Positions 30,301 through 62,753 of a stretch of 64,000 nucleotides of DNA are shown piece after piece. This DNA is from an uncultured Acidobacteriota bacterium (GTDB taxonomy: Bacteria; Acidobacteriota; Thermoanaerobaculia; Multivoradales; JAHEKO01). Location: contig CAVQNG010000014.1 in NCBI GenBank assembly GCA_963713825.1, positions 54,366-118,365 of the forward strand, given 5' to 3'. Numbering within the stretch: position 1 is the first letter of the stretch; every line of letters begins with the position of its first letter. Below the pieces are notes generated by a model, which searched no databases, was not told where the DNA came from, and saw nothing but the letters and a program-made list of their open reading frames with translations. The translations under genes and the position numbers were made by a program.

Positions 30301-30410
30301 CATCTCGGCTCGCACTGAGCTGCTGAGGTGGCAGCTACAGGAAAAGACGAACTCTGCGGTTGGATACTTGTGGCGAGAGCTCAGGCTGAAGGCTCGAGGC
30401 GAGTCGCCGG

Positions 30411-32849: not shown

Positions 32850-34172
32850 ATGATCGAACCTATTGCTACCCCGACTACGAAATCACAACTCGGCCCTGGA
32901 ACTTCGGAGGTCGACCAGCTCGGCGATCGAATCGCCGAGCTCTCGGCCCAGATCCAGGCTGCCACCTACCACCTGCTGGTCCTGATCCGGGAGTTCGACG
33001 AGAAGAGCGGTTGGAACACCGGCTTTCGCTCCTGTGCCCATTGGCTCAACTGGCGCACTGGGCTCGACCTGGGCGCGGCCCGGGAGAAGGTACGAGTGGC
33101 CAAGGCCCTGGGCGAGTTGCCGCTTCTTTCCGAGGCGATGGGTTGTGGGGAGCTCTCCTACTCCAAGGTCAGGGCCCTGACCCGAGTGGCGACCCGTGAG
33201 AACGAGGCGGAGCTCCTCGAATTCGCTCGGGCTGGAACGGCCGCCCATGTGGAGAAGCTGGTGCGGGCCTGGCGCCGTGTCGATCGGCAGGACGAGGTCC
33301 ACCGAGAGAATCTACGTCACGCCAGCCGCTACCTGGCGGCCACCACGGATTACGACGGCATGATCGTGCTACGGGCACGATTGGACCCGGAAGTGGGAGC
33401 CGCTCTGCTGAAAGCTCTGGAGGCAGCCGAGCAGGTGCTCTATGACAGAGAGCGGGAGACCAAGGACGAGCGAGGCGATGGAATCGCGGTCCGCCAGCGA
33501 CGAGCGGATGCCATAGGTCTTGTCGCCGAAAGTGCGCTGGATGGCGGGATGGACCAAGGAACTCGGGCCGAGCGCTTGCAGGTGGTGGTGCATGTCGACG
33601 AGGAGGTTCTGGCCGATCCGCAAGCCGCAGGGGTGTCCATGCTGGAGGACGGCACAGACGTTTCCGCGGAAACGTCCCGGAGGCTCTCCTGCGATGCCGG
33701 CAAGGTGGTCATGAAACACGATTCCGAGGGCAATATCCTCGATGTCGGCCGTCGAACTCGCACGATTCCCACCCCGATTCGCCGCGCTCTGACCGCCAGG
33801 GACGAAGGCTGCCAGTTTCCGGGCTGCGGATTGAAGCATTGCGAGGCTCACCACCTCAAACACTGGGCCGACGGAGGAAAGACCAGCCTCGAAAACCTGG
33901 TTCTGCTGTGTCGCCGTCACCATCGCGCCGTGCACGAAGAGGGATACCGCATCGAGCACATTGGGGATGGCGGGCTGCGCTTCTTCCGACCCCAGGGCTG
34001 GGAGATTCCGAGCGTTCCTCCGCCACCACCCCTGGTCGAGGACCCCTTGGCGGAGCTCGAGAGCCTGCTCGACGAGGAAGACATCTCGATCGACTCCCAC
34101 ACAGGGTTTCCGCGCTGGCAGGGAGAGCGACTCGACCTCAACTGGGCGGTCCAGGGCTATCGACAGCTGTGA
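32850..34172 (+). CDS. HNH endonuclease, DUF222 (REP13E12-type) family
   Basis: N-terminal DUF222 region. C-terminal HNH motif EGCQFPGCGLKHCEAHHLKHWADGGKTSLENLVLLCRRHHRAVHE. An AT-rich TATAAT-containing stretch lies 28 nt upstream. Confidence 0.8.
   Translation: MIEPIATPTTKSQLGPGTSEVDQLGDRIAELSAQIQAATYHLLVLIREFDEKSGWNTGFRSCAHWLNWRTGLDLGAAREKVRVAKALGELPLLSEAMGCGELSYSKVRALTRVATRENEAELLEFARAGTAAHVEKLVRAWRRVDRQDEVHRENLRHASRYLAATTDYDGMIVLRARLDPEVGAALLKALEAAEQVLYDRERETKDERGDGIAVRQRRADAIGLVAESALDGGMDQGTRAERLQVVVHVDEEVLADPQAAGVSMLEDGTDVSAETSRRLSCDAGKVVMKHDSEGNILDVGRRTRTIPTPIRRALTARDEGCQFPGCGLKHCEAHHLKHWADGGKTSLENLVLLCRRHHRAVHEEGYRIEHIGDGGLRFFRPQGWEIPSVPPPPPLVEDPLAELESLLDEEDISIDSHTGFPRWQGERLDLNWAVQGYRQL
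33658..33675. repeat. 18-bp perfect palindrome ACGTTTCCGCGGAAACGT (copy 1, inside the HNH ORF)
   Basis: Exact palindrome. The same core recurs at 34182-34197 and 35071-35088. Confidence 0.5.
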
Positions 34173-34181
34173 CGGACCCGG

Positions 34182-34246
34182 CGTTTCCGCGGAAACGTCT
34201 GCGCACCCTCCTCAGGGCGCCCGAATCGGCTGGCACCGTTCCCGAT
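34182..34246. repeat. Repeat unit: palindrome core CGTTTCCGCGGAAACG plus downstream CGAATCGGCTGGCACC box
   Basis: Lies 10 nt after the HNH stop. Both sub-motifs recur at 35041-35165. Confidence 0.5.
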
Positions 34247-34253
34247 CCCCGAG

Positions 34254-34592
34254 TCACAGCGCCAGTACCAGGCGAATACCCTCATCAATGCGAGTCATCG
34301 CTTGGGTTGTCAGGCGACCGACCGGTTTAGAGAGAAAGGAGCGGTCGAGTGTGAGCAGCTGCGACACATTCACAACCGAGTCCTTGGGGAGCCAGCTGGT
34401 CTTCTTCTTCAGCAATACGTTGCCGGGAGAATCTGCCAGGCGTAGGTTCGATGTAATGACCGCGACGACAACGGTCTGAATCCGGCTGGCATTGAAGGCG
34501 TCGGATTGCACGATGAGGACAGGCCGGCGAAGCCCAGGGCCAGAGCCCTGAGGCCGGGGGAGTGAGGCCCACCGGATCTCCCCCCGCTGCAC
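34254..34592 (-). CDS. Type II toxin, MazF/PemK/Kid-family mRNA interferase
   Basis: MQRGEIRWASLPRPQGSGPGLRRPVLIVQSDAFN...VVAVITSN follows the PemK/MazF fold pattern (RG-I/V-W..L.P..G.E...RP.LIVS). The start shares 1 nt with the antitoxin stop. Confidence 0.75.
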   Translation of the reverse strand: MQRGEIRWASLPRPQGSGPGLRRPVLIVQSDAFNASRIQTVVVAVITSNLRLADSPGNVLLKKKTSWLPKDSVVNVSQLLTLDRSFLSKPVGRLTTQAMTRIDEGIRLVLAL

Positions 34593-34828
34593 TACCAGTC
34601 CTCGGAATCCAGCGTAGCGAGTTGCAGGGTGTCGAGGATGGGATCGACTCGCGCTGGCTCGTCGCTGTAGATCTGGTTGAGACTCTCGGTGACTTCAAGG
34701 TGTTGATGCTCGGCCACGAAACACCGAACTGCCGTGGCATAGAGTCGGCTCCGGGAAAGACCCAAGCGTTGGGCAAGTTGCTCGGCTGCCTCGTAGACCT
34801 GGTCAGGAATCGAGATCGCGGTTTTCAT
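34592..34828 (-). CDS. Cognate antitoxin (RHH/MazE-PemI-like)
   Basis: MKTAISIPDQVYEAAEQLAQRLGLSRSRLYATAV is an RHH DNA-binding N-terminus. Directly upstream of and overlapping the toxin. Confidence 0.6.
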   Translation of the reverse strand: MKTAISIPDQVYEAAEQLAQRLGLSRSRLYATAVRCFVAEHQHLEVTESLNQIYSDEPARVDPILDTLQLATLDSEDW

Positions 34829-34833
34829 GTCTA

Positions 34834-34855
34834 TAGTATAACCAAAGTTATACTA
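34834..34855. promoter_or_regulatory. Perfect palindrome TAGTATAAC-CAAA-GTTATACTA immediately upstream of the antitoxin start; candidate operator
   Basis: 9-bp arms, 6 nt upstream of the ATG at 34828. AT-rich. Confidence 0.4.
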
Positions 34856-35040
34856 ATGAGTCAGTGATGGAGCTGAGCTGATCCGACAGCCTGGAATCGA
34901 GCCGGGAAACAGTACCCCGGAGCTTTCTAGATCTTGGTCTATCTGTATGGAGCTTCGTTACGCTTCAGGTTGTGGATCGTCAGGAGTCCACCCTGACACC
35001 CAGTCGTAGCAAAGGCCTGTTGATATCCCCGAACCGTCGC

Positions 35041-35165
35041 AGAATCGGCTGCCCCCTATTCGCAGTTCCGACGTTTCCGCGGAAACGTCTTCAGGCGGGG
35101 GCAAACCCCGCCCCTGCTCTAATACCCACCCCTGCGCCTAAATTCGAGATCGGCTGGCACCCACC
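35041..35165. repeat. Repeat unit copy 3 (AGAATCGGCTGCCCC, palindrome ACGTTTCCGCGGAAACGT, CGAGATCGGCTGGCACC)
   Basis: Shares both sub-motifs with 34182-34246. Together the copies bracket the MazEF pair. Confidence 0.5.
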
Positions 35166-35450
35166 TAGTAACCCAACTAGTACGGGCAGTGGCGAAAGGG
35201 GAGAAACAGTGCACGAAGGCGTGAGGATGCGAACCAACCCCTTGGTCCACTCCTGGTCCATTTCGGTGGAACTTGTGGACGGTTCCCGAACTATCAGTAA
35301 GTCCTTCCGATAGGTTTCCGTGACAAGGGGAGGTATCTCGGAGCCACGCGAGCGACTCGTGAATATTGAGATGACTGTCCCGATAGTTCAGACTAGGAAG
35401 ACAAGGCTGGGCGCAAGTGCCGCCACTCAGAAACAGCCTGTGAGAGCTTT

Positions 35451-36641
35451 CTATTCCACTGTATTCGACCACGCCGAGGTGTCGCCGGACTCGAAGCCGT
35501 CTCTGAATAACAGCTGAGGGGTCATGTCTCCGAGGGCAACGTGATATGTGTCGTTCTCGTCGGAGCTAAGATCGGTACAGCTGAATCCACCCAGGCCATC
35601 TCCGAGACACAACCGATTCCGCGCCTGGTAGTTCCCGAAAACAGCATCGAGGTATTGATCGTCGTCGACGTAGCTTAGAGCGACACCAAGAGAGTCGAAC
35701 TCGTCGGTACTGACATCGCCGCAGGTGAAGTGCCCGGCTCCATCTCCGAGGCACACTCGATTTCGACCGAAGGCGACCCCGAACACGGCATCGAGGTTCT
35801 GATCGTCGTCGATCAACCCCAAAGAAACTCTCGTGTGGAAGTGTTCGTCCGTGCTGACATCGCTACAAGTGAAGCCGCCCAGGCCATTGCCAATACAGAC
35901 GCGGTTGCGTTGTTCTTTGTTGGCGAAGACGGCATCGAGAATCTGGTCGTTGTCGATGTAGCCCAGAGCAACGCCAGTCGAGTAGAACTCGTCGCTACTG
36001 ACATCACTGCAAGTGAAGCCACCCAAACCGTCCCCAAGGCAGATGCGATTGCGCGGCTGACTCGGGAAACCAGTACCCCAGACTGCAAAGACGGCGTCAA
36101 GGACCTGATCGTTGTCAACTAGGCCCAGCGCAACATCTGTGGCACCAACGATGTCGGTGCCAACGTTGCTGCAGGTGAACTGTCCGGCTCCATCTCCGAG
36201 GCATACGCGATTCGGCGTGGCCGCATTGTGACCTCCAATGATGGCGTCGAGGTGCTGATCGCCATCAATAAGTCCGAGCGCCACGCCGGATGAGCCTTCT
36301 GCTACAGTATCGACATAACTGCAAGAGGAAAATCTCCCCAAGCCGTCGCCAAAGCAGACACGGTCGCGTTGATGTGCGCGATTGGCAAACACAGCATCGG
36401 GGTGCTGATCGCCATCCACGAGGCCGAGCGCAACCGTCCCGCCAGCGTCCTCGTCATCGCTGACATCACTACACATGAACCCTGCACCACCGTCGCCAAG
36501 GCAGAAACGATCTGGAGATCCCCAGACCGCAAAAACAGCGTCTAAGGATTCACTCGCCGACACCGCCCCGGCACCGACCATTGCTGACAAAAGCACAATC
36601 AGTCCGGCACAGACTTTCAACCTCTCTCTCATCTCGAACAT
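35451..36641 (-). CDS. Secreted FG-GAP / VCBS-type repeat beta-propeller protein
   Basis: Signal peptide. About seven repeats of D.DQ.LDAVF...NRVC.GDG.G.F(T/S)C.DVS.DE. Confidence 0.75.
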   Translation of the reverse strand: MFEMRERLKVCAGLIVLLSAMVGAGAVSASESLDAVFAVWGSPDRFCLGDGGAGFMCSDVSDDEDAGGTVALGLVDGDQHPDAVFANRAHQRDRVCFGDGLGRFSSCSYVDTVAEGSSGVALGLIDGDQHLDAIIGGHNAATPNRVCLGDGAGQFTCSNVGTDIVGATDVALGLVDNDQVLDAVFAVWGTGFPSQPRNRICLGDGLGGFTCSDVSSDEFYSTGVALGYIDNDQILDAVFANKEQRNRVCIGNGLGGFTCSDVSTDEHFHTRVSLGLIDDDQNLDAVFGVAFGRNRVCLGDGAGHFTCGDVSTDEFDSLGVALSYVDDDQYLDAVFGNYQARNRLCLGDGLGGFSCTDLSSDENDTYHVALGDMTPQLLFRDGFESGDTSAWSNTVE

Positions 36642-36865
36642 CCTTTCCGCATGTGGATCGGGGGAATTCCCGGCCGGCCATATCGATAGGCACTTCGGCC
36701 CCTCCTTACAGGAACGGTGATCCGGTGATTCGGCCCTGAGCTATTCCGGGTGTGCCTTCGTCGAAGCACTTTCACTGTCTCCGCTAATAGAAGGCCCAAG
36801 CGGACAGATTTGTTACCCCCAATTGACGGGGGCGCTCTCCGGGCCTGACCGTCTGAGGAAGGGAT

Positions 36866-39628
36866 CTAGAACTCAACCCTCAAGCCCAGCTCGTAGCGGC
36901 GGGGGAGCTGCCATTCGGTGGCGTCGCCTTGCTCGTACTCGCCACAACCGCTGACCCGGCCGCAGATGTCGGTAGCGTTCTCCGAGTCGAAGAGGTTGAG
37001 GACCGTTCCGATCAACCGTAGGCGGGTGCGCCCGAGGTTGAAATCCTTGGAGAGCTGGACGTCGAGCTGGCCCCACTCGTCTCCTTCACGGCTACCACGG
37101 GGCTCGACAAGAATGTTGCCCCAGGCACCTGGATCGACGGTGGCCGCAGGACGGACCGGGGTCCAACGGAAAGGCGACCCCCAGACTCCGTTGAATCCGA
37201 TGCCGAAGTCCAGCGGCAAGAAGACATAACCGCTCGCCTTCAGTCGGTGCTTGCGGTGATAGCCGAGATAGCCGTCACGATTCGTGAAGTGGTAGGGATA
37301 CAGATCGAAATCGGTCGACGCGATATTGCTGTGAGTCGAGCCTTCGGAATTGGAGTTGGTGTACGAGGCCAGCACGTGGAGGCGATCCAGCGCTCGGCTT
37401 TCGAAGCTCAAGAGCCATCCGGTGTAGTCGCGACGAGCCTGGGGAAGATTGGCGATGATGAATCCAGTGCAACTGGTACCGGTTGTAGGTGTCGGGTAGT
37501 TTTCGACACAGGTGTCGTCGAACACGTCGCGTGTGGCCTTGTCGACGTAACTCAGCTCGAGAGAGGTGCGGCGGAGGAGCTCCCTTTCGAAGCCGATGAT
37601 GAAAGTATCGACGTACTGGGGTGTGAGATCGGACGCGATGACAGAGGGCTCTGACCCGACGGTATTGAAGAGTAGCCATCCCGCAGGATCCCAGTGGTTG
37701 GGATCAAAACGCCATTCCAGACCCTGGCTTGCACCCACTGCGGCGCACACCTCGGGATCAGTCACCCCCACGATGGTCGTGCAGGAGCCCCAGATCCTTC
37801 CGGTCTCCACCGCGGTGATCGCCGCGCGCGGCAACTGAAGGAAGCTCGAGTGCATGAAGCGGCCCCCCGATGCTCGAAGAAGATTGCGTCCGTTCCGCGT
37901 CAGGTCCCAGGTGACCCCGAGGCGGGGCTGGAGCATCTGGAGATCCGCCACCTCCTGCCCTATGTCGTTGTCGTAGATCGCGCGGTCCCAGCGAAGCCCG
38001 AGCTGAAGCGTGACATCCGGCCGCACACGCCAGGAATCCTGAACGAACAGGTCGGTGATCGAGCCCGTCGTTTCATAGGGTCCCGAAGGCGACAGGGCCT
38101 GCATCAGGTACGGAATGCTGGTGCCGGAAGCGGATAGATCACCGTACTGGTAGCCTTCCTCGCCTTGCCGACAGAGCCCTCCGCCCTGGATTCCGGTCCA
38201 ACACGTATTCCGGTCTTGGGAGGTTTGGTGAATTTCGCCCCCAACCTTGATGTCGTGGCTGCCCAAGGCTTCATCCACGAACCAAGTGAAATCAGTGCCG
38301 ACCTGGTCCCGTCGGATGCCTGTGGAGCGGAGCGTCAGATAGTTGCCGGTTATGAGTCCGGTGTCGAGGTTGTAGTGCTGTATCAGGGAGTTGTCACCGC
38401 TCATGGGGCCCAATTCGTCATCGACCCAGTCCGAACCGATGTGCATCTCCCAGAGGAGGCTTCGCGCCAAGACCCCGGACACCTCGGCCTGGAAGAGGGT
38501 GTAGGGACGTTCCCAGCGACCCGTCGCCTCGGCAGCCGTGAATGTCCCGGAACCCGCATTGGTACTCTCAAAAGGGGTTCTGAGGTACTTTGCCTGGACC
38601 AACCAGTTCGGAGCCGCCTGACCGGTGATCTTGATGAAGGCCGGGGTGCTTGCCTGTCGCTCCGTGGTGGGGGAATCGAGCCAGGTCCAGCGGTAGTCGT
38701 GCGACTCGAGCGAGCCGAAGAACCAGGCTCGGTCGCGAACGAGGCGGCCACCGAGGGTGACGCCCGCGATGCTCGTGCTCGAAGTCTGTTCGTCGGGATT
38801 GTAGTGATCCCCAGAGGTCTCGAGGTTGTTGTCCGTGTAGCGGATATCGACTGCTCCCGACCAGGCATTGCTGCCGGACTTCGTCAGCGCATTGATGACC
38901 CCACCCGTAGCACGTCCAAACTCGGCTTGGAAGCCTCCCGATTCGAAGGCCACCTCCTGGATGGCGAGGGTTGGGTATCCCACCTGAGGGCCACCCCAGC
39001 TCGGGCTCGTAGCATCGAGGCCGTCGATCAGGAACACGTTCTCTGACCCAGTAGACCCTAAAACGCTCTGGGTGAAGTAGAAACCAGACTCTCCCGCCGG
39101 AAACGTGGAGCCGGTCCCAGCCGCCTGCAGAATCAGCTGTATGTGCGAATAGCGAACGCCTAGGCCGACCGCTGCCTCCTGGATGAAGTCGTTGGTGAAG
39201 CTCTGCCCCGTGGACACTCTCTGAGGATCCACTACGGGTGTCGTTTCGGTGACCGTGATCTCGTCCCCATATCTGGCGAGCGGCAGGACGACCCGCACCT
39301 GAGCCATGCGCTCCAGGCGCACCTGGACCTCGGTGAGCTCCTGGGTGTGGAAGCCGTCGAGCTCGAGGCGCACGGTGAAGTACCCGGGGCTCAGACGGGG
39401 ATACTGGAACCATCCCTCGGCGTCGGTCTGGGTCGTCTGGACTCCGCCGATCTGGTTGGGAGAACTCGCTGAGACCGCGACACCGGGCAGTGGCACACCT
39501 TCCCCGTCGACTACAAAGCCCGAAAGCCGCCCCGTAGTTCCAGCGTGAACGGGTTCGGCCAGGGTCAGAACTACAGCAGCCATTGCGATGATCAGGCATG
39601 CGGATGGGACAGCAGCTCCCGCTTTCAT
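36866..39628 (-). CDS. TonB-dependent receptor with N-terminal carboxypeptidase-regulatory-like domain
   Basis: Start MKAGAAVPSACLIIAMAAV with a GGAAGGAGAG RBS. CarboxypepD_reg-like segment (GRLSGFVVDGEGVPLPGVAVSA...DAEGWFQYPRLSPGYFTV). Plug and 22-strand barrel, with a terminal aromatic (...LGLRVEF). Confidence 0.85.
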   Translation of the reverse strand: MKAGAAVPSACLIIAMAAVVLTLAEPVHAGTTGRLSGFVVDGEGVPLPGVAVSASSPNQIGGVQTTQTDAEGWFQYPRLSPGYFTVRLELDGFHTQELTEVQVRLERMAQVRVVLPLARYGDEITVTETTPVVDPQRVSTGQSFTNDFIQEAAVGLGVRYSHIQLILQAAGTGSTFPAGESGFYFTQSVLGSTGSENVFLIDGLDATSPSWGGPQVGYPTLAIQEVAFESGGFQAEFGRATGGVINALTKSGSNAWSGAVDIRYTDNNLETSGDHYNPDEQTSSTSIAGVTLGGRLVRDRAWFFGSLESHDYRWTWLDSPTTERQASTPAFIKITGQAAPNWLVQAKYLRTPFESTNAGSGTFTAAEATGRWERPYTLFQAEVSGVLARSLLWEMHIGSDWVDDELGPMSGDNSLIQHYNLDTGLITGNYLTLRSTGIRRDQVGTDFTWFVDEALGSHDIKVGGEIHQTSQDRNTCWTGIQGGGLCRQGEEGYQYGDLSASGTSIPYLMQALSPSGPYETTGSITDLFVQDSWRVRPDVTLQLGLRWDRAIYDNDIGQEVADLQMLQPRLGVTWDLTRNGRNLLRASGGRFMHSSFLQLPRAAITAVETGRIWGSCTTIVGVTDPEVCAAVGASQGLEWRFDPNHWDPAGWLLFNTVGSEPSVIASDLTPQYVDTFIIGFERELLRRTSLELSYVDKATRDVFDDTCVENYPTPTTGTSCTGFIIANLPQARRDYTGWLLSFESRALDRLHVLASYTNSNSEGSTHSNIASTDFDLYPYHFTNRDGYLGYHRKHRLKASGYVFLPLDFGIGFNGVWGSPFRWTPVRPAATVDPGAWGNILVEPRGSREGDEWGQLDVQLSKDFNLGRTRLRLIGTVLNLFDSENATDICGRVSGCGEYEQGDATEWQLPRRYELGLRVEF

Positions 39629-39653
39629 CGAGGCTCTCCTTCCAGGTACAGCA

Positions 39654-42600
39654 TCAGGGCCACTCGGGGATCGCGGCCCAGCCGGGGAAGGGCGCGTAGC
39701 CGAGCTTCCAACCAGTCGGGGAGTCGGAATTTTCGACGACTCGAACGTTGGTCCGCGAATGGAGCTCGGCGAGCAGCTCATCATGTGGCAGGGTGTGAAG
39801 GGGTGGTTTAGACATGTCCGGAAAAGGCCAGACTCGCACAGTCCGGTCGTCGCCTACCGAGGCAATCCAACGACCGTCGGGAGACACCGCGATGGTTCGA
39901 ACGAGGCCCCGATGGCCGATTAGTAGGTGCGGTTCCTCTCCCGATACCGGGCCGACTCGCAAGGGACCGTCCAGCCCCCCACTGATGATCCACTGGTCAG
40001 AAGGATGGAGGGCGATCCGGAAGGGGTCTGGATGGGTGTCGAGGCGACGTGTCTCCCTCCCGTCGAGGCTACTCCAGGCAAGGTGGGACCGGAGATCCTC
40101 GGTGCTGTAGGCGTCGCCGTCCCAGTGCACGTCTATTTTGAATTCACCGTTGGAACTGAGTGCCCGTGTCGCGACCATTCCCTCTTCTGCCACTACCTCG
40201 ACACTGTTGTCTTCAAGATCGAAGACTCTCTCTCCACCCGTAGCGCCCGGGACGACCCCCGCGGCCCCGACCCAGCGGAGCCTTCGGTTGTCATCGAAGC
40301 GGAGAAAGGAGGTGCTACCAGGGACCGGTCCCAGTACCTGGACCTTGTTCGTCAGCAGGTCCCAGACACGTATGACCATCTCTTCTGCTGCGCCGTTCAT
40401 CAAGGCGGAAGCTAGTAGACGGCCGTCAGGGCTGAAGTCGAGCTCCATGCCGTAACGACCCCGTCCTGGCCACTCGGCGGGCATCTCTCGAACTTCTCCT
40501 CCCTCGAGCGGAACGATCATCACCGTGGACCAGCTCGAGACCGCCACATTTCTTCCGCTCGGATCGAAGGCCATCGAGGTGAAGCCTCTGAGCCTCTCAT
40601 CAGTGAGCACGCGCATCTTGCCCTCGTTCTGACCTTCGAGCGGCCAGGCAAGCAATCCGTCTCGTCCTACCGATAGCAGAAGCCAACTTCCATCTGGGCT
40701 GAACTGCAGATCACCCGCATTGCCTTCGAACCCATGAAACACAGATCGAGATCGACTGGGCAGGGGCCAGAATGCAGCATTGCCAAGGTAGGCAGAGACG
40801 ACCATCCGGCCACTGGGGTGCAGGGCGACACCGTGTGAAAAGACCTCGTCTGCCTTGCGGAGAACCAGGGGTTCAGCGGCAGGAGGTGCGCTCAAGTCCC
40901 AGAGGCGCACCGAGGCGACGCCTTGCTCCATTCCCCTGAAACCCAGCCACCTTCCGGTCGGGCCATACCCGACCCGGGACCGCACCACGACCCCCTTGAG
41001 GTTGCCCATTGCCAGGGTTCGGAGCGGCCGAGTTGATTCTCCTTCGAGTGACCAGATCTTCAACTCTCCCAACTCATCTCGTGCCGCCACTCGATCCCCT
41101 AAGGGGTGAAACGAGAGCTCCAGAACCTCGGCCGGGTGCTGGCCGACCTGGCGGGGCGCCCGCATCCACTCGTCGAGCGAGCGAATGAAGACCCGGTCCT
41201 GCCTGTTGTAGGCCATCCTCGAGCCGTTGGTGTCGATGTCAAAGGCATTGCCCCAGGCCGGCATACTGCCGATCAGCCGCGACTCACCTTCCTCGTAGGG
41301 CCACCAGCGAATTTCTGCCACCTCCTCATCCACCGAAACGCTGTAGTAACCATCGCCGCTCGGAGCGTGGAGTTGTCCCCGGCTGTCTTCGGCACTGCGA
41401 AGTTCCCTTCCCTCGGGAATGGAGAACCAGCGGAACTCACCCTGCTTCTCGATAATGACCAGGTCATCGAGCGGGAACGCGACTGCCGGTGGATACAGCT
41501 GATTCGGATAGTTGACAAGAGTGATAGCTTCCTTGCCATCTTCGGGAAGCACGGTCACCCTGTCCCACCCGTTGATCGCCAGCCACTCCCCGCTCGGGCT
41601 GAACACGAGGCCAGAAGCCCGAGACTCCTCGTTCGCCGGAAGTACTGTTGCCGGGGGAGCCATCTGGAGCGCACGCAGGGCGAGCATGCGCCCCTCCTCG
41701 GTGTCGAAGACCTCGAGGCTCTTGGTCGCCCAGGCGAGTGCGGCGGTCGGATATCTGTCGATCTCGAGCTCGCCCAGGGCCAGCAGGCGACCGGATTCCG
41801 CCCGGAGACGTTCCTGCTCAGCCCGATGCCAGAAGCCAGCGACAATGGTCAGACCAACAAGGAGAAGAGTAATGACCGTGGTGACCGCAATTCCTTTCTG
41901 CCGCCTGCGGCGCTCAGCAAACGAGGTCATCGCCCTCGCGAAGGCCTCCTCGGTATCCGTCAGTCCACCTGGGTAACGCTCGCGCCAAAGCTCGTACTCC
42001 TTGAATGCGTTCCCGGTCCAGAGATAGTCCTCGGAGCGGCGGTGCTCCTCCCAGATCCGGGCCTGGCTGCGAAGCTCGTCGCGAAGCTGTGCTCCTTCGG
42101 CGTCTTGTGTCTGCCATCGCACCAGCCGCGGCCAGTTTGAAAGCAGGGACTCGTGGATGATCTCGATGCGGTGGTGCAGCCCACCGCCTTCCTCGTCGGC
42201 AGGGACCTCGAAGGAGGTGAGGAGGCGAGCGTCGATGAGGGTGGACAGGACGCTCGCCGCTGCGCTGCGAGACCCCGCGCCAGCGGTGCCCTGTTTGTCG
42301 AAGACCGAGAACAGCTCCTGGCGGTCTCGAGAATCGCGGGTGCCCTCGGCGGTGACGAGATTGCGAAAGATCTCACGCACAATCGGCACGTTGGCTTCGC
42401 CGATGTAGTCGAGAGTCGCCTCCGCATGCTGAGCCAGGGCCCCACTCACGCCGCCGATTTGGTGGTAGCTCTTGCGAGTCAGGAGTCCGGTCTCGCGGTC
42501 GCGGCGGTCCCAGAGCTGGGCGGCGGCAAACGCGAGCAAGGGCAGGGCACCACGCTGGCCTTCGATCTCGCCCAGCATCTGCTCCACGATTCCTTCGTCC

Positions 42601-44210
42601 TCGAAGCCGTAGCCGCACCGCAGGGCTGGCTCGACCAGAGCCCGCCGCAGAGCTGCCCCGGTCGGAGCACCCAGGAGTGTCAGATCCGTGAGGATAGGCC
42701 GCAAGGCCTCGAAGTGATGACAATGGAACAGAAAATCATCCCGCATCGAGAGCAGGACGTGAATGTCGACTTCGAGGGGCAATCGACCCAGCACATCGGC
42801 GAACGATGACTGTACTATTGCAGTGTTCTGGGTGAAGAGCTCTTCGAATTGATCGACGATGAGGAGCGCGTGCGTGTGACTTCGACGCCACTCGGTCAGC
42901 AACTCGACCGCGACGTCGGGATCCTCGAGGTGTTGCAGGAGGTAGCTTGCGCTCGGCACATCGCGTAGCTCCACGGGCAGTGCTCGAGCGAGGTGGTCGA
43001 ACGGTCGGTTCCCTGGAGTCATCACGAGCGCTTGCCAGCCGTCGATCAGCGTGGGTAGCAAGCCCGCCCTCAGGAAGGAACTTTTTCCAGCACCTGAAGG
43101 CCCGATGAGAGCGAGCAGATGAGGCCGCCTAAGCTTCTTCCACAGCGATTCGATTTCCAGCTCTCTGCCGTAGAAGTGATCCGCATCCTCCTCTTGGAAG
43201 GCTGCCAATCCCGGATAGGGGCGGGCCTGTTCGTCACCGACGGCTCGTAGAGTCACCTCCTCGAGGGCTCTGGCCAGCTCTGCCGCGCTCGAGAAGCGTT
43301 CGCCGGGAGCCGGCGTAGCACACCGACGAATCACGCGTGACCAGGGGGTCTCGGTCACATGGGGTCCTTCCTGATGGAGTGCCTCCCAGATCGCTTGTCG
43401 ATCCTCGAAGGTCTTGACCCCATGCGGTTCAACCATCTCCGCCAGAAGGATGCCGGCTGAGAAGACATCCGAGCGGGCATCCAGATCGGCGCCCCGGGCT
43501 TGCTCGGGGGACATGTAGGGCGGTGTCCCGGCTACGAAACCACTTCTGCTGTCGCCAAGGCCTTTGGTGATGCCGAAGTCCATGACGACGACCCGGCCGG
43601 TGCGGGTCATCATGACGTTCTCGGGCTTGATGTCGCGGTGCACGAGGCCGGCATCGTGAATCGCTTCCAGTCCCGCCAGGAACTGCGAGGCGATCTCTCG
43701 GGCTTCAACGAGGTCCAGGGGAGAGCGCTCCTCGAGAATCTCCTGGAGCGTCGTCCCATCGATGTACTCCATCAGCACCAGCTCCTGGCCGTCGAGTTCC
43801 TCGAGATCGTAGACGCGGCAGACGTTGGGTGAGATCACTCGGCGTGCCGCTCGGACTTCCTTGCGCAGGGCCTCGAGCGCTTCCCTGTTCTGGATCAGCT
43901 CGGGGCGCAGTGCTTTCAGTGCCACATCCTGACGGAGCTTCAGGTCGTAGGCTCTCCAGACGTCACCCATGCCGCCTCGCCCGACAAGCGAGCGAAAACG
44001 GTAGCGACCGCCGAGGACTCGGCCTTCCTGGAAGGTGTCGCCTGGAGGGAGGTGCTCTCGGTCTACTTCCGACTCCGCCAACACCTCGGCCTCGATAGAG
44101 GTGTCGTCGAGTGCCATCGAAAGAAGGCAGCTCGGGCACAGTCCTTCGCTACCACCCTTCCTCGAAAGGGGTACCCCACATGTCGGGCACTGGACCGATG
44201 CGGCCTTCAT
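39654..44210 (-). CDS. Multidomain Ser/Thr protein kinase: Zn-ribbon, Pkinase, nSTAND P-loop NTPase, TM helix, WD40-type beta-propeller
   Basis: Start [16 protein letters not shown]...CPSC with a GGAGAG RBS. Kinase motifs [12 protein letters not shown] and [23 protein letters not shown] followed by [14 protein letters not shown] (Walker A). One TM helix ([19 protein letters not shown]). C-terminal WD40/PQQ-like repeats. Confidence 0.85.
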
Positions 44211-44287
44211 GGTCTCTCTCCCATCCTCGGCCGTGGGCATCCACGGTCGTCAGGCTCGAGAGAAATAGACCGAAGCCAGGCTAGGTG

Positions 44288-45016
44288 TTACTTCACTTGG
44301 CCTGACTGGGGTTTCACGACTTCCAGGAGATGCCGAATCTCATCATCGACATCATCGGGGTCGGCGACGATCTCTGATATTTCGGTGCGCAGGCACTGGC
44401 CGAAGCGCTTTCGAAGGCGGTGGACGGCGGTTCTCACCGCCCCTTCGTTCATACCCAGGGCATGGGCGACCTGGTTGTAGGGTGCCTGAGGCTCCGCGCT
44501 GGTCAGGTACTGCCTGAGCAGTTCGAATTGGTTCGGATCGCCGTAGGCATTTGACTGATCGCGTAGGCGATCCATAGCGCGGTCGAGTACAGTCAACGCC
44601 CAACCCTCCTCGAAGACTTCCTCCGGTGTGCGACTGGCAGGCTCGCCCTCGTAGAACTCCTCAGCGACGTCGGTGGCCAGAGACAGTACCCGGGTCCTGC
44701 CACCACGCTTGAGAGTTCGGTCCCGTCTTCGCTCGTGTGCGAGGAAGTGACGGAGAGATGCCAGCAGGAAGGAGCGAAATCGACCTTTCGACGGATCGAC
44801 GTTAGCCAGGAGATCCTTCTCCATGAGCTCTGTGAAGAAGCCTTGCGTCAAATCCATGGCTTCGTCGGGACTCGAGCCATGGTGCCGGATATAGGCGTAG
44901 AGGGGCTGCCAGTAGGTCTGGCAGAGGCTTTCCAGGGCCGCCCGCGCTTCCGTGTCGGAACCGTCTCTGGCGGCGAGTACCTGGCTCCACTGAGTCGTGG
45001 CCACCTTGCCGCTCAT
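44288..45016 (-). CDS. ECF-type RNA polymerase sigma-70 family factor
   Basis: Region 2 (DLTQGFFTELMEK...FRSFLLASLRHFLAHERRR) and region 4 HTH (QVAHALGMNEGAVRTAVHRLRKRF). Directly upstream of the kinase on the same strand. Confidence 0.8.
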   Translation of the reverse strand: MSGKVATTQWSQVLAARDGSDTEARAALESLCQTYWQPLYAYIRHHGSSPDEAMDLTQGFFTELMEKDLLANVDPSKGRFRSFLLASLRHFLAHERRRDRTLKRGGRTRVLSLATDVAEEFYEGEPASRTPEEVFEEGWALTVLDRAMDRLRDQSNAYGDPNQFELLRQYLTSAEPQAPYNQVAHALGMNEGAVRTAVHRLRKRFGQCLRTEISEIVADPDDVDDEIRHLLEVVKPQSGQVK

Positions 45017-45335
45017 GCTCCCTCCCGTAGGAGCAACCGAAACAACAGTCTGGACGAGCTCGCACCGCGAGGCCGTCCGCAGAGTCAGCTTGGTTCTTCG
45101 GACCCGTCAAGAGTACAGGAAGTCCTTTCAAGAAGCACTACCTGTCGAGGTAGGAATAGGTACGTCCTTGCACCGACAAGGGGGTGACCGATGGTTCTAG
45201 TTGCTCGGAGCAGCGCCGGCGGTAGCGGCCTCGTGGTCTAGTGCCATGTTGGTGACGTAGGTTGTGGTTGACAATTCCGGATCATGGCACTGCCGCCGCT
45301 ACCGCCAGTGTACTCGTGAGTGAATGCCCGCCGCC

Positions 45336-46283
45336 TCAGTCGGAGGGTGATCGACAATCGCCGTCAAGAGGCTTCACGTCAGCGTCGTGTACAGAGAAAC
45401 AGCTTGGCGTGGTGGCCCCTGCCACAGCACCATCCAGCTGCGAATGGAGCAGGGACGCGACCCCGTAGTTGCAGATCCCTCCCCTGATCTCCGAGCTTCG
45501 GACTGTCATTGAGCCAAGGGTCCCAACTGTAATCGCACAGGCTTCTCCGAGAACTGAAGTCCGCTGCAGCCCAGTCAGGCCGTAGCCCAGGATGCCTTGT
45601 GATCCTGGGCCGTCGGCAACGATTATCGAGTTCCTGACTTCGAGAACTGACTCGGCTGAAAAAGCGACGATGCCGTAGGAGCCGCGTTCATCGCTTGTGG
45701 CCAGCAGCGTGACGCCATCTAGGACCGCCGTTGATCTGGCGATTCTGATACCAGAGCCCCAGCCTGAGGTCGGAGCGATCTCAATCGTCACATGCTTGAG
45801 GTATGTTGGTCCCGCGTACCAGATTTCGATACCCCGTGGTTCGTGGCCCGAGGCTCTGATCGTGACGTCAGAAACGGATGCGGATTGACCGGAGCCTACC
45901 CACAGGACCCTCTCGCAGGAAGCGGCACCTTCGAGGGTGAGTGATCGGAGCTCCGCGTGACTGGAACCGCTGATGGCGTAGTCTCTACCTGAGACGATTT
46001 TCGTCAATGCCTCGCCTGCGCCCTCAATGTCAACGAAAGGCTTCATGTCGATTTGTTCTTCATAGACCCCGGGTGCCACGTACACCAGATAGGGGTTGTC
46101 CTCCGTCGCATCTGTGATGCTGTCGAGTGCCGCTTGTATGGAGTGGAAGGCTGCACCGTTCTTTGCTACCTGGATGATGTTGTTCGTGCCGCCCCACTTG
46201 TTCCAGAGCTGTCCTTCGACCGTCGCGGCACGGAGGAGCAGCAGAGTAATGACGATCCCTGTCCTCAGTCGATGGTGAATCAT
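45336..46283 (-). CDS. Secreted right-handed beta-helix (pectin-lyase-fold) protein, pectinesterase-like N-terminus
   Basis: Signal peptide. IQVAKNGAAFHSIQAALDSITDATEDNPYLVYVAPGVYEE resembles the CE8/pectate-lyase N-terminus. Gly/Ser-rich beta-helix turns. Confidence 0.6.
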   Translation of the reverse strand: MIHHRLRTGIVITLLLLRAATVEGQLWNKWGGTNNIIQVAKNGAAFHSIQAALDSITDATEDNPYLVYVAPGVYEEQIDMKPFVDIEGAGEALTKIVSGRDYAISGSSHAELRSLTLEGAASCERVLWVGSGQSASVSDVTIRASGHEPRGIEIWYAGPTYLKHVTIEIAPTSGWGSGIRIARSTAVLDGVTLLATSDERGSYGIVAFSAESVLEVRNSIIVADGPGSQGILGYGLTGLQRTSVLGEACAITVGTLGSMTVRSSEIRGGICNYGVASLLHSQLDGAVAGATTPSCFSVHDADVKPLDGDCRSPSD

Positions 46284-46343
46284 GATCTGTCCTCCTTCGC
46301 TGTGATCGGTGCTGATTGGGCACGACGAGATAAGCTAGCATCC

Positions 46344-47303
46344 TCACTCGAGAATTGGCTGACAATGCTCGTCCAGAGCGCTCATTTTGGGGCCGCAGGT
46401 GGAGAAGCAGGAGACACTGTCCCCAGACACATGATCCGTGAGCTCCGAGTGGGAGATTGCAACGTCCTCCCCGAGCCCGGTGGCAATCGCTCCACTGATC
46501 TCTGAATGCTTTATCTTCAGCGCCCCATAAGACCCGACGGCCCAGCTGTCTCCAGCAACCGTCACATGCTTCAGAACGGCCGACGAGCCTCCGGCGAAGA
46601 CGCTGATGGACGCCGGTTCACCCTCGACGACAATGCTCGAATTCGTCATCTCGAAGTCGTCCCGAAGGTAAACACCGGTGTTGGTGCATTCGTCATTCGC
46701 AACCAGCATCGAGAGGTCGTCAAACAGCAGAACAGGCGTGCAGCCCAACATGCATCTGCCAAGAATGCCGTTGCCACGACACAGGCCTGACTCCGGAGTT
46801 GGGACTACCGCTACCGTCACGTCCTTCAGAGTCAGATCTCCGCAACAGGTACCAATGCCGGTGGCCCATCTGCCGGACGCCTTGATGGTGACGTGAGTGA
46901 TCTTCAGAGCAGCCCGGTTGTCGATCGCGGTGCAGCTGTCGATTCCGGTGCATTCAACAGTCAGCGATCGCAGCGCCGCGTCGGCGCCCTTGAGGGTTCT
47001 TGGCCCCGCGGAGACAATCCTCGTAAGGTGCTCGCCGGCGCCCTCGATGTCCACGAAGTGCTTCATGACGACCCGCCCTGCGTAGACTCCGGGTGCTACG
47101 TACACCAGATAGGGGTTGTCTTCACTTGCATCCGTGATGCTGTCCAGGGCGGCTTGAATGGAGCGAAAACCCCGGCCGCTCTTGGCGACGATGACGATTT
47201 GATCGGTCATGCCCAATCGGTTCACCAGCTGCCCATCGGCGTTCAGGGCGCCGAGCAGCAGCAAGACAGTGAAAGCTACGATGAGTGATCTGTTCTGGGT
47301 CAT
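46344..47303 (-). CDS. Secreted right-handed beta-helix protein (paralog of preceding gene)
   Basis: Start MTQNRSLIVAFTVLLLLGALNA (ATG, 15th codon of the track ORF). Shares IV.AK.G..F.SIQAALDSITDA.EDNPYLVYVAPGVY and HVDI.GAGE..T.IVS with the neighbor. Confidence 0.6.
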   Translation of the reverse strand: MTQNRSLIVAFTVLLLLGALNADGQLVNRLGMTDQIVIVAKSGRGFRSIQAALDSITDASEDNPYLVYVAPGVYAGRVVMKHFVDIEGAGEHLTRIVSAGPRTLKGADAALRSLTVECTGIDSCTAIDNRAALKITHVTIKASGRWATGIGTCCGDLTLKDVTVAVVPTPESGLCRGNGILGRCMLGCTPVLLFDDLSMLVANDECTNTGVYLRDDFEMTNSSIVVEGEPASISVFAGGSSAVLKHVTVAGDSWAVGSYGALKIKHSEISGAIATGLGEDVAISHSELTDHVSGDSVSCFSTCGPKMSALDEHCQPILE

Positions 47304-47651
47304 ATTGGCCCTCCTTCCTGGTCGTCCACTAGAAGAAGGCCGCAACCAACAGATTCGTTACACCCCGGTCAACGAAGTTGCCCCGCGGACCAACGCACTG
47401 GAAGCAAGTGCGCGCCACCACGAACAATCGCGCCGGCTCATCGGGTCAGACAGATCGAGAGGCGAGGACAGAAGTCCTCTTCGGGACTCTAGTTCGGGCG
47501 AAGTCGGCACCGAACCGGTCCTGTGGAGCTTCCTGGAAGGGTCGGCGGCGCAGCAGAACCGCCGGCTGGCTCAGGGCTTGGGGGATGGAGCCGTTTCCCG
47601 AAGTTTCCGTTCAGCGAGGGTGAGAAGGGAAGTTCAAGATCGGAATCGAGA

Positions 47652-56042: not shown

Positions 56043-56193
56043 GTCTGCAGACCGATTGTAGAACTTCCAGCCCCCGCATGGGAGGGCGCAAGGCCCTGTA
56101 GGGCGCCAGAACCCCATCCGCCCAACGAAATCGTTGACACCCTGCAGTGATCGCCGGCTGACTGAGCTGATGCTCTAGATCTTCTTCACGATC

Positions 56194-58963: not shown

Positions 58964-59128
58964 ACGGAAAAGTGTTGTCTCACAACTGGTGCAAAGATGC
59001 AAGCACCCGGATGAAGACGCAGTGAAGATCGTCATGCCGCATAGCGGCGAAAACGGGTAGAATCGGGCTTGAAAGCGGGAGCGGTCGTCCGCAGGGGGCG
59101 AGGCCAACTCTCGGCGCGGGAGGTAAAC

Positions 59129-60964
59129 GTGGACTACAACGTCGATTTCAGGGATGTGAAGTTTCAGATCTTCGATTGGCTGCCCACCGAGCGACTGCTG
59201 GGCAAGGGAATGTACGAGGACTGGGATCGGGATAGCCTCGAGATGGTCCTGGCGGAGGCTCTCAAAATCTCACAAGAAGAGATTGCACCGACCAACGAAG
59301 ACGGAGATCAAGAGGGCTCTACTCTCGAAGATGGAGTCGTCAAGGTTCCCTCGTCATTCAAGGCGCCCTACAAGACGGTCGCGGAGGGCGGCTGGATTGG
59401 TTGTACGAACAATCCGGAGTTTGGCGGTCTGGGCATTCCGGTCGTCGTGGGCACGGCGGTCAATGAGTTCTTTTCCGGTGCCAACCTCTCTTTGGCGCTG
59501 GTTCTCATGCTGACGCGTGGTGCTGGTGAGCTCGTCGAGGAGTTCGGTACCGACGAGATGCGCGAGCTCTTCTGCGACAAGCTGTTTTCCGGTGAGTGGA
59601 CCGGCACGATGTGCTTGACGGAGCCGCAGGCAGGTTCTGATGTCGGAGCTTCGACGAGCAAGGCGGAGCCCCAGGAGAACGGGCGCTATCTCATCTCCGG
59701 TGAGAAGATCTTCATCACCTACGGCGATCACGACCTGACGGACAACGTGATCCACGCGGTGCTAGCTCGGCTTCCGGGAGCGAAGCCCGGAACCAAGGGT
59801 CTCTCCCTCTTCATCGTGCCGAAATATCGAGTCAACCCCGATGGCAGCTTGGGCGAGCCGAACGACGTCCAGTGCGCCAGCATCGAGCACAAGATGGGCA
59901 TCCACGGTTCACCCACGTGCTCGATGCTCTTCGGGCAGAATGGGGCCTGCGAAGGCTTTCTGGTAGGCGAAGAGAACAAGGGCATGAAGCTCATGTTCAC
60001 GATGATGAATGCCGCCAGGCTGGAAGTGGGCTTGCAGGGTGTGGCCGTGGCAGGAGCAGCCCATCAGGCGGCGCAGGCATACGCTCGCGAACGGGTCCAA
60101 AGTCGGCATTGGAGTGGGGCACGCGACGCCGGCCCGGTTGCCATCGTCGAGCACCCCGATGTGCGTCGTCTGCTGCTGCTGTCCGACTCCTATGTGCAGG
60201 GGATGAGGGCTCTTCTACTCCAGACCGCCCTGTACCAGGATATGGCCCGCGCACTGAATGGAGAAGAGGCGGTGAGCTACAAGGCCATTAGTGAGCTGCT
60301 AACCCCTATCTGCAAAGCCTGGTGCACCGACTGGAGCTTCAGGGTGACGGAGTGGTGCCTGCAGGTCTTTGGAGGCTATGGCTACACGAAGGACTATCCG
60401 GCGGAGCAGTATCTGAGGGATGCCAAGATCGGCTCCATCTACGAAGGCACCAACGGTATCCAGGCGCTCGATCTCGTCGCGCGCAAGATCCCGTCCCATG
60501 AGGGCAAGCCGTTCGGCGAGCTTCTGGCTCGAGTCGGCAATACAGTGAAGAACCTGCGTGGGGACTCGCTGCTCGGGGGGCCAGCGCTGCGGCTCGGCAA
60601 GGCGGTCAAGCAAGTCGAGGAGACCGTGGGGGAGGTCTCACAACGCCCCGACATGATGCAGTCGCTGATGCTGAATGCGGTGCCGATGCTCGACATGGTT
60701 GGCACGACTCTGGCCGGTAACTTCTTGCTGGAGCAGGCCAATCTTGCGAAGGCCAAGCTCGAGAAGATCCTGCAGGCAAAGAGCGTCGATGCCGAGGATG
60801 GGGATGCTCTCGCAGCCCTGCTGAGCGACGATGAAGAGGCCGCTTTCTACCACAACAAGATTCAGGCGGCGATCCACTTCGCTTTCAGGGTTCTGCCCAT
60901 GGTCAAGGCGATGGGTGTAGCGGTTCGGGCCGGTGAATCGGCTCCCATCGCGGCACATCTCTAG
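59129..60964 (+). CDS. Acyl-CoA dehydrogenase family protein (long, ~610 aa type)
   Basis: GTG start at 59129 with a GGGAGG RBS 5 nt upstream, giving M-DYNVDFRDVKFQIF, typical of long ACADs. ACAD middle and C-terminal domains (TEPQAGSDVG, GGYGYTKDYPAEQYLRDAKI.SIYEGTN). The ATG at 59069 is an upstream read-through. Confidence 0.85.
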   Translation: MDYNVDFRDVKFQIFDWLPTERLLGKGMYEDWDRDSLEMVLAEALKISQEEIAPTNEDGDQEGSTLEDGVVKVPSSFKAPYKTVAEGGWIGCTNNPEFGGLGIPVVVGTAVNEFFSGANLSLALVLMLTRGAGELVEEFGTDEMRELFCDKLFSGEWTGTMCLTEPQAGSDVGASTSKAEPQENGRYLISGEKIFITYGDHDLTDNVIHAVLARLPGAKPGTKGLSLFIVPKYRVNPDGSLGEPNDVQCASIEHKMGIHGSPTCSMLFGQNGACEGFLVGEENKGMKLMFTMMNAARLEVGLQGVAVAGAAHQAAQAYARERVQSRHWSGARDAGPVAIVEHPDVRRLLLLSDSYVQGMRALLLQTALYQDMARALNGEEAVSYKAISELLTPICKAWCTDWSFRVTEWCLQVFGGYGYTKDYPAEQYLRDAKIGSIYEGTNGIQALDLVARKIPSHEGKPFGELLARVGNTVKNLRGDSLLGGPALRLGKAVKQVEETVGEVSQRPDMMQSLMLNAVPMLDMVGTTLAGNFLLEQANLAKAKLEKILQAKSVDAEDGDALAALLSDDEEAAFYHNKIQAAIHFAFRVLPMVKAMGVAVRAGESAPIAAHL

Positions 60965-60985
60965 GGAACGAGCTTGGTTGGGGAG

Positions 60986-62719: not shown

Positions 62720-62753
62720 GGCGAGAAGGGTCGAGGAAAAGATAGCACGGGGC

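Follow-up and report, generated by a model that had tools for sequence, protein, structure and literature searches.

To our knowledge, control of an extracytoplasmic function (ECF) sigma factor by a kinase has been demonstrated for one group only, ECF43, the other kinase-linked groups being predicted. In the ECF43 pairs EcfP/PknT of Vibrio parahaemolyticus and EcfK/PknS of Xanthomonas citri, direct and activating phosphorylation of the sigma factor has been demonstrated; in these sigma factors the acidic DAED motif has been lost and a phosphorylatable threonine stands in its place (QTTA or STTA) (PMC13147305, PMC8999054). In a second group, ECF62 of the Planctomycetes, the gene following that of the sigma factor (+1) encodes a kinase with an N-terminal zinc finger, one transmembrane (TM) helix and WD40 repeats, and control by phosphorylation is a prediction only (bioRxiv 10.1101/2019.12.11.873521, supplementary file 4; PMC7826278). 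Here we describe a related locus in a 64-kb stretch of DNA (the window; contig CAVQNG010000014.1, positions 54,366 to 118,365, from an uncultured Acidobacteriota bacterium), the minus strand of which carries, head to tail, the genes of an ECF-type sigma factor, a receptor kinase, a TonB-dependent transporter and a secreted FG-GAP repeat protein. The first three form a unit conserved in Acidobacteriota that most likely (we would put the probability at roughly 55%) relays an envelope signal to transcription as a self-contained signalling module.

The closest catalogued kind is ECF62, whose architectural features recur here when the locus is compared with the group description. In both, a sigma gene is followed by the gene of a kinase with zinc finger, TM helix and WD40 repeats and no anti-sigma factor is co-encoded. 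ECF62 is, however, 100% Planctomycetes as described, whereas the relatives found here are Acidobacteriota, and the window module has in addition a STAND NTPase between kinase and membrane and a conserved transporter. Jogler 2012 and Casas-Pastor 2021 (supplementary text S2) are reportedly the sources for the group. Membrane Ser/Thr kinases of Planctomycetota with periplasmic WD40 or TPR domains share the cytoplasmic Pkinase domain, the single TM helix and the periplasmic WD40 array, but linkage to a STAND NTPase, a sigma factor or a transporter is not described for them (PMC11032199). Acidobacteriota, a STAND NTPase in this position and a conserved transporter are each missing from the ECF62 description, from the searchable papers on kinases with periplasmic WD40 domains (PMC11032199) and from those on nSTAND1. 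A sequence-only reading of the window had noted the sigma gene next to a kinase gene; that observation is confirmed and its interpretation partly supported, but the reading missed that a sigma factor with a zinc-finger/TM/WD40 kinase is already catalogued as the predicted group ECF62.

Two other systems resemble the locus in part. As in ECF43, a membrane Hanks kinase gene lies beside the sigma gene with no anti-sigma gene, here 77 nt downstream and conserved in at least 12 loci. The window sigma factor, however, reads E-A-M-D at the motif position and ECF43 kinases lack a STAND NTPase; membership of ECF43 was rejected on the region 2.2 motif. With FecI-FecR-FecA the locus shares the order sigma factor, single-pass regulator, TonB-dependent transporter, the orientation of the regulator (N-terminus cytoplasmic, C-terminus periplasmic) and an extra periplasmic N-terminal domain on the transporter. 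It differs in that the regulator is a kinase-STAND-WD40 protein and the extra transporter domain is CarboxypepD_reg, not STN. In Pfam, neither the kinase nor the products of the neighbouring genes matched a FecR or anti-sigma family, and membership of the Fec-type systems was rejected for want of both a FecR and an STN domain. The module lies outside ECF43 and Fec, yet may work like either.

Results

Three genes that recur together in Acidobacteriota

Sigma factor, kinase and transporter constitute a real three-gene unit conserved in Acidobacteriota. Among about 30 independent loci (L numbers below) drawn from reference genomes and metagenomes, the order sigma-kinase-transporter recurs in Thermoanaerobaculia, Holophagae and Vicinamibacteria; named relatives are few and belong to Thermoanaerobaculia, Vicinamibacteria and unclassified Acidobacteria. 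A sigma gene immediately precedes the kinase gene (-1) in the window and in L001, L004, L007, L084, L085, L167, L168, L169, L170, L173 and L174, and a kinase gene stood at +1 in 4/4 look-ups begun from a sigma relative. For 14 of the approximately 27 kinases with downstream sequence, the gene at +1 on the same strand encodes a transporter (CarboxypepD_reg or TonB_dep_Rec). All 19 transporter-like genes in 512 kb of independent loci (19/19) adjoin kinase or sigma genes, none of this type being found in the non-adjacent remainder, and the binomial probability of the kinase-transporter adjacency is P<1e-11 even at a 5% background. Since the flanking genes differ completely among the loci (phosphonate ABC transporter genes, toxin-antitoxin pairs, transposases), the three genes travel as a unit. 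The synteny that the sequence-only reading had asked to see tested is thus conserved across unrelated contexts. As that reading had it, the kinase occupies the slot of an anti-sigma factor. In more than 12 loci, the sigma and kinase genes are neither separated nor flanked by a gene for an anti-sigma factor.

The unit can be repeated, with two or three copies in tandem in L168, L170 and L085. The link between kinase and transporter is independent of the sigma factor, because a transporter also stands at +1 of sigma-less kinases (L005, L019, L022). The family is large: more than 5000 kinase relatives have the same architecture, and 17,300 clusters (50% identity) match the part comprising nucleotide-binding oligomerisation domain (NOD), TM helix and WD40 at E<=1e-30, the top 150 listed all covering this chassis. 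A metagenome scan with the single kinase protein was uninformative and returned generic kinase-domain matches only. Three independent assemblies of one locus (L001-L003) all end inside the kinase gene, as expected of repeated paralogs.

The four genes of the window lie where the sequence-only reading had placed them. Its gaps of 78 and 26 nt were each one nucleotide too long, but the short spacing itself stands: 77 nt separate sigma and kinase genes, 25 nt lie between the kinase stop and the transporter start, and 224 nt part the transporter from the FG-GAP gene. Each of the first three genes is preceded by a Shine-Dalgarno sequence, and a scan for sigma-70 promoters and terminators found no terminator-like site between these three and was otherwise uninformative for the intergenic stretches. 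Positions 34000-47500 have no match in Rfam. The FG-GAP protein, which has an FG-GAP_3 match and a signal-peptide-like N-terminus, had been noted as following the receptor; its gene is absent downstream of the transporter in L085, L167, L168, L173, L174 and L007. Together with two upstream beta-helix genes, it was rejected as a member of the unit, being not conserved in related loci.

A membrane-spanning kinase with a tandem propeller sensor

The kinase is counted here from its second ATG (1518 aa; the open reading frame from the first ATG has 1528 aa), which was taken as the start because it has the better Shine-Dalgarno sequence, GGGAGAGAG, and agrees with database protein P0121. An exact look-up of the window kinase returned no record. 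The catalytic motifs of the kinase domain are intact (K98, the VALK lysine; HRD, 191-193; DFG, 211-213; SPE, 234-236), as are Walker A (GPSGAGKS, aa 370-378) and Walker B (VDQFEE, aa 449-457) of the NTPase, and the key residues of kinase and Walker motifs are invariant in an alignment of 32 relatives. The NTPase match spans positions 1-378 of the 379 in the PF20703 model. With the full PF20703 domain and Walker motifs the protein qualifies as an nSTAND1 STAND NTPase, and with the lysine, HRD, DFG and APE-like SPE as a Hanks kinase. Pfam, NCBIfam and motif reading agree with the domains the sequence-only reading had assigned (Zn ribbon, Ser/Thr kinase, nSTAND, one TM helix, WD40, TonB-dependent receptor, FG-GAP).

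The sole TM helix is preceded by RRRRQK and is kept in the family consensus. Beyond it lies the sensor. The AlphaFold2 (AF2) model of the 708-residue C-terminal part (pLDDT, the predicted local distance difference test, 89.5; pTM, the predicted template modelling score, 0.90) starts with a helical hairpin, continues with 14 blades and closes with a short tail of helix and hairpin. The WD40 fold had been recognised from sequence, as one propeller; the model has two. Among solved structures, the model most resembles tandem WD40 propellers and Apaf-1 in its sensor region. Because kinase and NTPase need cytoplasmic ATP and the protein has no signal peptide, the propellers very probably sit in the periplasm.

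The two sides of the membrane appear to evolve differently. Identity between relatives is approximately 62% in the cytoplasmic part and about 32-33% in the propellers, and the trees of the cytoplasmic and sensor halves disagree, which indicates that sensor domains recombine; on these comparisons the periplasmic propellers both diverge fast and recombine. The C-terminal tail is 60% identical and carries the motif ...LTNLRVV...TGWKL...PFPGW...PEW, in which L1483, T1487, N1488, F1508, G1510, W1511 and P1515 are invariant.

The sigma factor and a conserved upstream box

The sigma factor matches Sigma70_r2 (E 1e-6) and, weakly, Sigma70_ECF and Sigma70_r4_2 in Pfam, and scores 53 bits against NCBIfam TIGR02937 (cut-off 42.9). 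With sigma2 and sigma4 domains only, it is of the ECF (group 4) sigma-70 type; its sigma2-sigma4 linker is long, its N-terminus carries a conserved ATTQWSQVL motif, and 6884 relatives were detected. In the family alignment, region 2.2 of the window protein reads E52-A53-M54-D55-L-T-Q and the consensus [D/E]-A-x-D-L-T-Q, with A53 and D55 invariant and the acidic residues kept. Because E52 and D55 are kept and methionine occupies the phospho-position, the activation logic of ECF43 is not directly transferable, and the sequence does not single out a phosphosite. Candidates at the level of guesses are two conserved positions of the long linker, S112 and T130-P131, or the N-terminal T7/T8.

Upstream of the sigma gene lies a conserved element that is a candidate promoter or operator. 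It consists of an inverted repeat, CTACCT-CGAC-AGGTAG, the stem of which varies by compensating T-A to C-G swaps, followed by a box, TTCCTGTAC...GTCCGAAG (consensus across loci TTCYTGTA[C/G]...GTCYGAAG). Its core precedes the sigma ATG by 104-106 nt in the window, L001, L084, L085, L168, L169 and L170, and by 56 nt in an eighth locus, L174; the genes upstream of the box are unrelated among the eight, two of which (2/8) were left out of the motif definition. A position weight matrix (PWM) of the box has a single match in the window and, since it gave no second copy, no regulon is definable.

The box 8-mer TTCCTGTA occurs three times in the window, against 0.78 expected, and 4% of shuffles reach three. 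One further match, at 36707-36714 (-), lies in the 224-nt gap, 66 nt upstream of the FG-GAP start, and has CCGAAG 7 nt downstream (as GCCGAAG), a spacing 4 nt shorter than upstream of the sigma gene; the third is at 30336-30343 (-), as TTCCTGTAGCTG. These extra matches may be further promoters of the same kind or may be due to chance.

A zinc ribbon that accompanies the sigma factor, and exchangeable output domains

The Zn ribbon is present in 12/12 kinases with a sigma gene at -1, and in two further paralogs of a sigma-encoding cluster, and in 0/12 kinases without one (Fisher p = 1e-5, a value inflated by relatedness). L007, which has both ribbon and sigma factor, and L005, which has neither, are mutual closest kinases and share a transporter class, so ribbon and sigma factor have been gained or lost together at least once more. 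The pattern points to the ribbon as a putative sigma-contact (docking) module.

Strict co-occurrence would also be expected if the ribbon, possibly with the kinase, were itself the anti-sigma factor, holding the sigma factor at the membrane and freeing it on a signal, with phosphorylation directed at the kinase or another protein. Zinc-binding anti-sigma domains are common (the zinc-binding anti-sigma, or ZAS, factors; PMC8999054), and the window sigma factor, with most of the acidic residues of region 2.2 retained, shows no sign of the intrinsic inactivity of ECF43 sigma factors. The ribbon is, however, a short CxxC...CxxC rather than the helical HxxxCxxC, and matched no anti-sigma family in Pfam. 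The invariance of the kinase catalytic residues in sigma-linked members, which argues that catalysis matters, also speaks against this idea. We consider it unlikely as a full account, although an anti-sigma role of the ribbon is possible within a phosphorylation model and compatible with it.

Relatives of the kinase carry other output domains on the same chassis. An OmpR-type winged helix (Trans_reg_C) replaces ribbon and kinase in L010, L011 and 5/7 short-headed cluster representatives; the Trans_reg_C-nSTAND1-TM-WD40 members are L010 9575-13585, L011 3313-7347, P0363, P0384, P0414, P0436 and P0443. Their domain order would make them one-component STAND regulators that are anchored in the membrane and sense outside the cytoplasm. 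In L017 the stop codon of a sigma-less kinase gene overlaps the start codon of a 222-aa Trans_reg_C+FHA gene (14461-15126), the predicted product of which is an EmbR-like, phospho-threonine-reading transcription regulator. Because sister proteins carry an OmpR-type DNA-binding domain in place of the kinase, the chassis feeds transcription, and every output version of the NOD-TM-WD40 chassis appears to end there. MalT and the AfsR-type SARP-NB-ARC-TPR regulators are STAND transcription regulators as well, AfsR being a substrate of the kinase AfsK. In them, too, a STAND NTPase couples ligand sensing by a repeat domain to transcription; the sisters here have their OmpR-type domain at the N-terminus. 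MalT and AfsR are soluble and have cytoplasmic sensors, whereas here the TM helix puts the repeat sensor outside the cytoplasm.

The same outputs bear on whether the protein could belong to an anti-invader system, in which an NLR-like STAND protein with a kinase effector would detect, through its periplasmic sensor, phage or bacteriocin proteins entering via the transporter, or other foreign molecules, and trigger protection. nSTAND1 was defined in predicted conflict systems with N-terminal effectors that include S/T kinases (PMC8195603, PMC10907252). The nSTAND1 conflict proteins (Kaur et al. 2021) and Avs share with the window protein the order of N-terminal effector-like domain, STAND NTPase and C-terminal repeat sensor, as well as sensor diversification and paralog expansion. 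Fast divergence and recombination of sensors between paralogs, the tandem arrays, and the toxin-antitoxin genes and transposases nearby in L170, L173 and L174 would fit such a role. TonB-dependent transporters are, moreover, classic phage and colicin receptors, and FpvA-pyocin S2, Cir-colicin Ia and Cir-microcin V are among the fold matches of the transporter. On the other side, the module differs from the conflict proteins in its TM helix, periplasmic sensor, link to sigma factor and transporter, and transcriptional outputs in relatives. These outputs (sigma partner, OmpR-type domain, FHA-OmpR partner) are not toxic, the family is of great size and widespread on chromosomes within a single phylum, and the PADLOC matches (PD-T4-6, mad6, MkoA) are confined to aa 36-383, in essence the kinase domain, with no Avs or other STAND defence model matched. 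An anti-invader function thus seems very improbable. The preference of the sequence-only reading for signalling over an Avs-like role is strengthened by sister proteins that swap the kinase for a DNA-binding domain and by PADLOC matches confined to the kinase domain.

The transporter and its relation to the kinase

The transporter has a signal peptide and matches CarboxypepD_reg and, in its barrel, OMP_b-brl_4 in Pfam. Pfam did not detect Plug in the window protein; relatives in its clade do give Plug and TonB_dep_Rec matches, and the AF2 model (pLDDT 88) has a plug at 140-266 and a barrel at 283-919, ending in ...RVEF. TonB-dependent transporters are defined by a TonB box, a plug and a 22-strand barrel, and the window protein qualifies by its TonB box (DEITVTETTPVVD, DEITVT) and the modelled plug and barrel. 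Among solved TonB-dependent transporters, Foldseek of the model placed YddB and FusA on top (E down to 2e-42), with FecA also matched. A transporter relative of 41% identity (L176 6709-15919) stands in tandem with a second transporter; next to it is a secreted peptidase of the M4 (thermolysin) type, and neither a kinase nor a sigma gene is near. The YddB/FusA fold and this peptidase neighbour hint that the cargo may be a peptide or protein.

The arrangement invites a version of Fec-type surface signalling built from new parts, in which the substrate-loaded transporter would expose its periplasmic N-terminal domain or TonB box, the kinase propellers or tail would bind it, and STAND-kinase and then sigma factor would be switched on. 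This overlaps with relay of an envelope signal by the module and adds direct contact between transporter and kinase. The gene order is that of fecI-fecR-fecA, and the transporter follows even the sigma-less kinases L005, L019 and L022. CarboxypepD_reg precedes the TonB box, which assigns it to the periplasm, the location of the STN domain in FecA. The tail of the kinase, 60% identical against approximately 33% in the propellers, is as expected of a generic docking surface. The parts that operate in Fec are nevertheless absent: Pfam finds no FecR-like domain, and no STN (Secretin_and_TonB_N) domain in the transporter, whose N-terminal domain is CarboxypepD_reg. The transporters encoded at +1 belong to four or more classes, between which identity is only 22-25%, and these are swapped while their kinases are 50-69% identical; even kinases of 60-69% identity adjoin transporters as distant as this. 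Distances of sensors and transporters are not correlated (Mantel p about 0.1). The partner in L022 is a classical transporter without the extra N-terminal domain, and the 41%-identical transporter occurs without any kinase. Direct contact of this kind is a tentative proposal, which we hold to be possible but on balance doubtful. Of the analogue of FecI-FecR-FecA suggested by the sequence-only reading, the gene order stands, while the STN and FecR-like domains and transporter-sensor co-evolution do not; the analogy is plausible and positional rather than demonstrated. A mirror-tree comparison of kinase regions with transporters (whole kinase Mantel p 0.02, single domains p 0.07-0.34) was weak and is not used as support.

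Features and surroundings of the locus

Table 1. Features of the sigma-kinase-transporter locus in the window (aa, residues of the encoded protein).
Feature	Position	Strand	Evidence
ECF-type sigma factor, 242 aa	44288-45016	-	Pfam and NCBIfam matches
Receptor kinase, 1518 aa: Zn ribbon, Hanks kinase, nSTAND1 NTPase, TM helix, two WD40 propellers, conserved tail	39654-44210	-	Pfam, AF2, sequence motifs
Zn ribbon, CxxC-x13-CxxC, aa 8-28 (proposed sigma-docking module)	44127-44189	-	read directly from sequence
Hanks-type Ser/Thr kinase domain, aa 71-325	43236-44000	-	Pkinase E 6e-41
nSTAND1 NTPase, aa 331-727	42030-43220	-	PF20703 E 2e-98
Single TM helix, aa 773-794	41829-41894	-	sole hydrophobic segment in protein
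Extracytoplasmic sensor, aa 811-1518: helical hairpin, two 7-bladed WD40 propellers, tail	39657-41780	-	AF2
Conserved extracytoplasmic C-terminal tail, aa 1441-1518	39657-39890	-	family conservation
TonB-dependent transporter, 920 aa from M53: signal peptide, CarboxypepD_reg, TonB box, plug, barrel	36866-39628	-	Pfam, AF2, Foldseek
Secreted FG-GAP repeat protein, 396 aa; neighbour outside the conserved unit	35451-36641	-	FG-GAP_3
Conserved element upstream of the sigma gene; candidate promoter/operator (putative function)	45081-45168	-	cross-locus conservation

Directly upstream of the sigma gene are two adjacent paralogous genes for secreted proteins with weak pectinesterase-like (beta-helix) matches (45336-46283 and 46344-47345, both -), which were not found in related loci. 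A membrane-type Pkinase-TPR kinase of another kind (53463-56117, -; 884 aa) is encoded 8 kb away, and Pkinase-TPR genes also adjoin STAND kinases in L006 and L169. At the far end of the window (59069-63950), genes for an acyl-CoA dehydrogenase, a dynamin-like GTPase and a 398-aa protein have the same order and orientation as in L001 (371-5274); approximately 14 kb of extra genes (RND pump, TPR kinase, beta-helix genes) part this block from the sigma gene in the window, and a transposase and small genes do so in L001. On the other side, 1.3 kb beyond the FG-GAP gene, lies a DUF222 and HNH endonuclease gene (32850-34172, +), of a type often tied to mobile DNA.

Discussion

We propose that the kinase protein is a single-pass inner-membrane receptor whose periplasmic WD40 propellers would bind a ligand. 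The signal would pass via the single helix to the cytoplasmic nSTAND1 NTPase. Like its counterparts in STAND/NLR proteins elsewhere, the NTPase would switch or oligomerise in a nucleotide-dependent manner, and oligomerisation would bring the Hanks kinase domains together and activate them. The N-terminal Zn ribbon would recruit the co-encoded ECF-type sigma factor, which the kinase would then phosphorylate or release, the phosphosite probably lying elsewhere than in region 2.2, the long linker between sigma2 and sigma4 being one possibility. Activated sigma factor would direct RNA polymerase to the operon's own promoter region, and expression of sigma factor, kinase and downstream transporter would rise. 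The transporter, whose nearest matches by fold are the protein importers YddB and FusA, would import a large substrate; it would be the regulated cargo of the system and possibly the origin of the periplasmic signal as well. We infer all of these causal steps from the ECF43 precedents and from general knowledge of STAND proteins.

Several observations weigh against such a relay. Many members of the kinase family have no sigma factor, and some relatives stand in tandem arrays of three to four paralogs (L008, whole contig; L022; L168; L019). Region 2.2 of the sigma factor retains 2/3 acidic DAED residues (E52, D55) and has Met, not Thr, at the ECF43 phospho-position. The upstream box, though conserved, is not resolvable into -35 and -10 hexamers with normal spacing, and the PWM finds no clear second copy in the window and none upstream of sigma-less kinases. 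Co-evolution of sensor and transporter was not detected, their distances being uncorrelated (Mantel p about 0.1). nSTAND1 proteins are otherwise discussed as components of conflict systems (PMC8195603).

A bolder form of the proposal is that of a transmembrane NLR-like receptor, whose periplasmic double propeller would monitor the TonB-dependent transporter, for cargo or invader, and switch the STAND NTPase, with the kinase passing the signal to a dedicated sigma factor. We regard it as speculative and would not expect it to hold in full. If true, it would be a new class of trans-envelope signalling that replaces the FecR/STN pair and is used thousands of times in Acidobacteriota, with swappable output heads: kinase with sigma factor, kinase with FHA regulator, or a fused DNA-binding domain.

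Relay of an envelope signal by the three-gene unit would be relevant to the regulation of ECF sigma factors, to bacterial STAND/NLR proteins and to TonB-dependent transport. A very large family outside the Planctomycetes makes it possible to test kinase control of a sigma factor that keeps its acidic core-binding motif, and docking by a ribbon. Because the output heads are interchangeable, at least this branch of nSTAND1 would serve signalling rather than defence, which matters for the annotation of such proteins. The module raises the question of whether a STAND/NLR switch can be driven across a membrane by an extracytoplasmic sensor. Acidobacteria have many CarboxypepD_reg-type TonB-dependent transporters of unknown substrate, and the module bears on how they regulate TonB-dependent transporters without FecR and STN parts.

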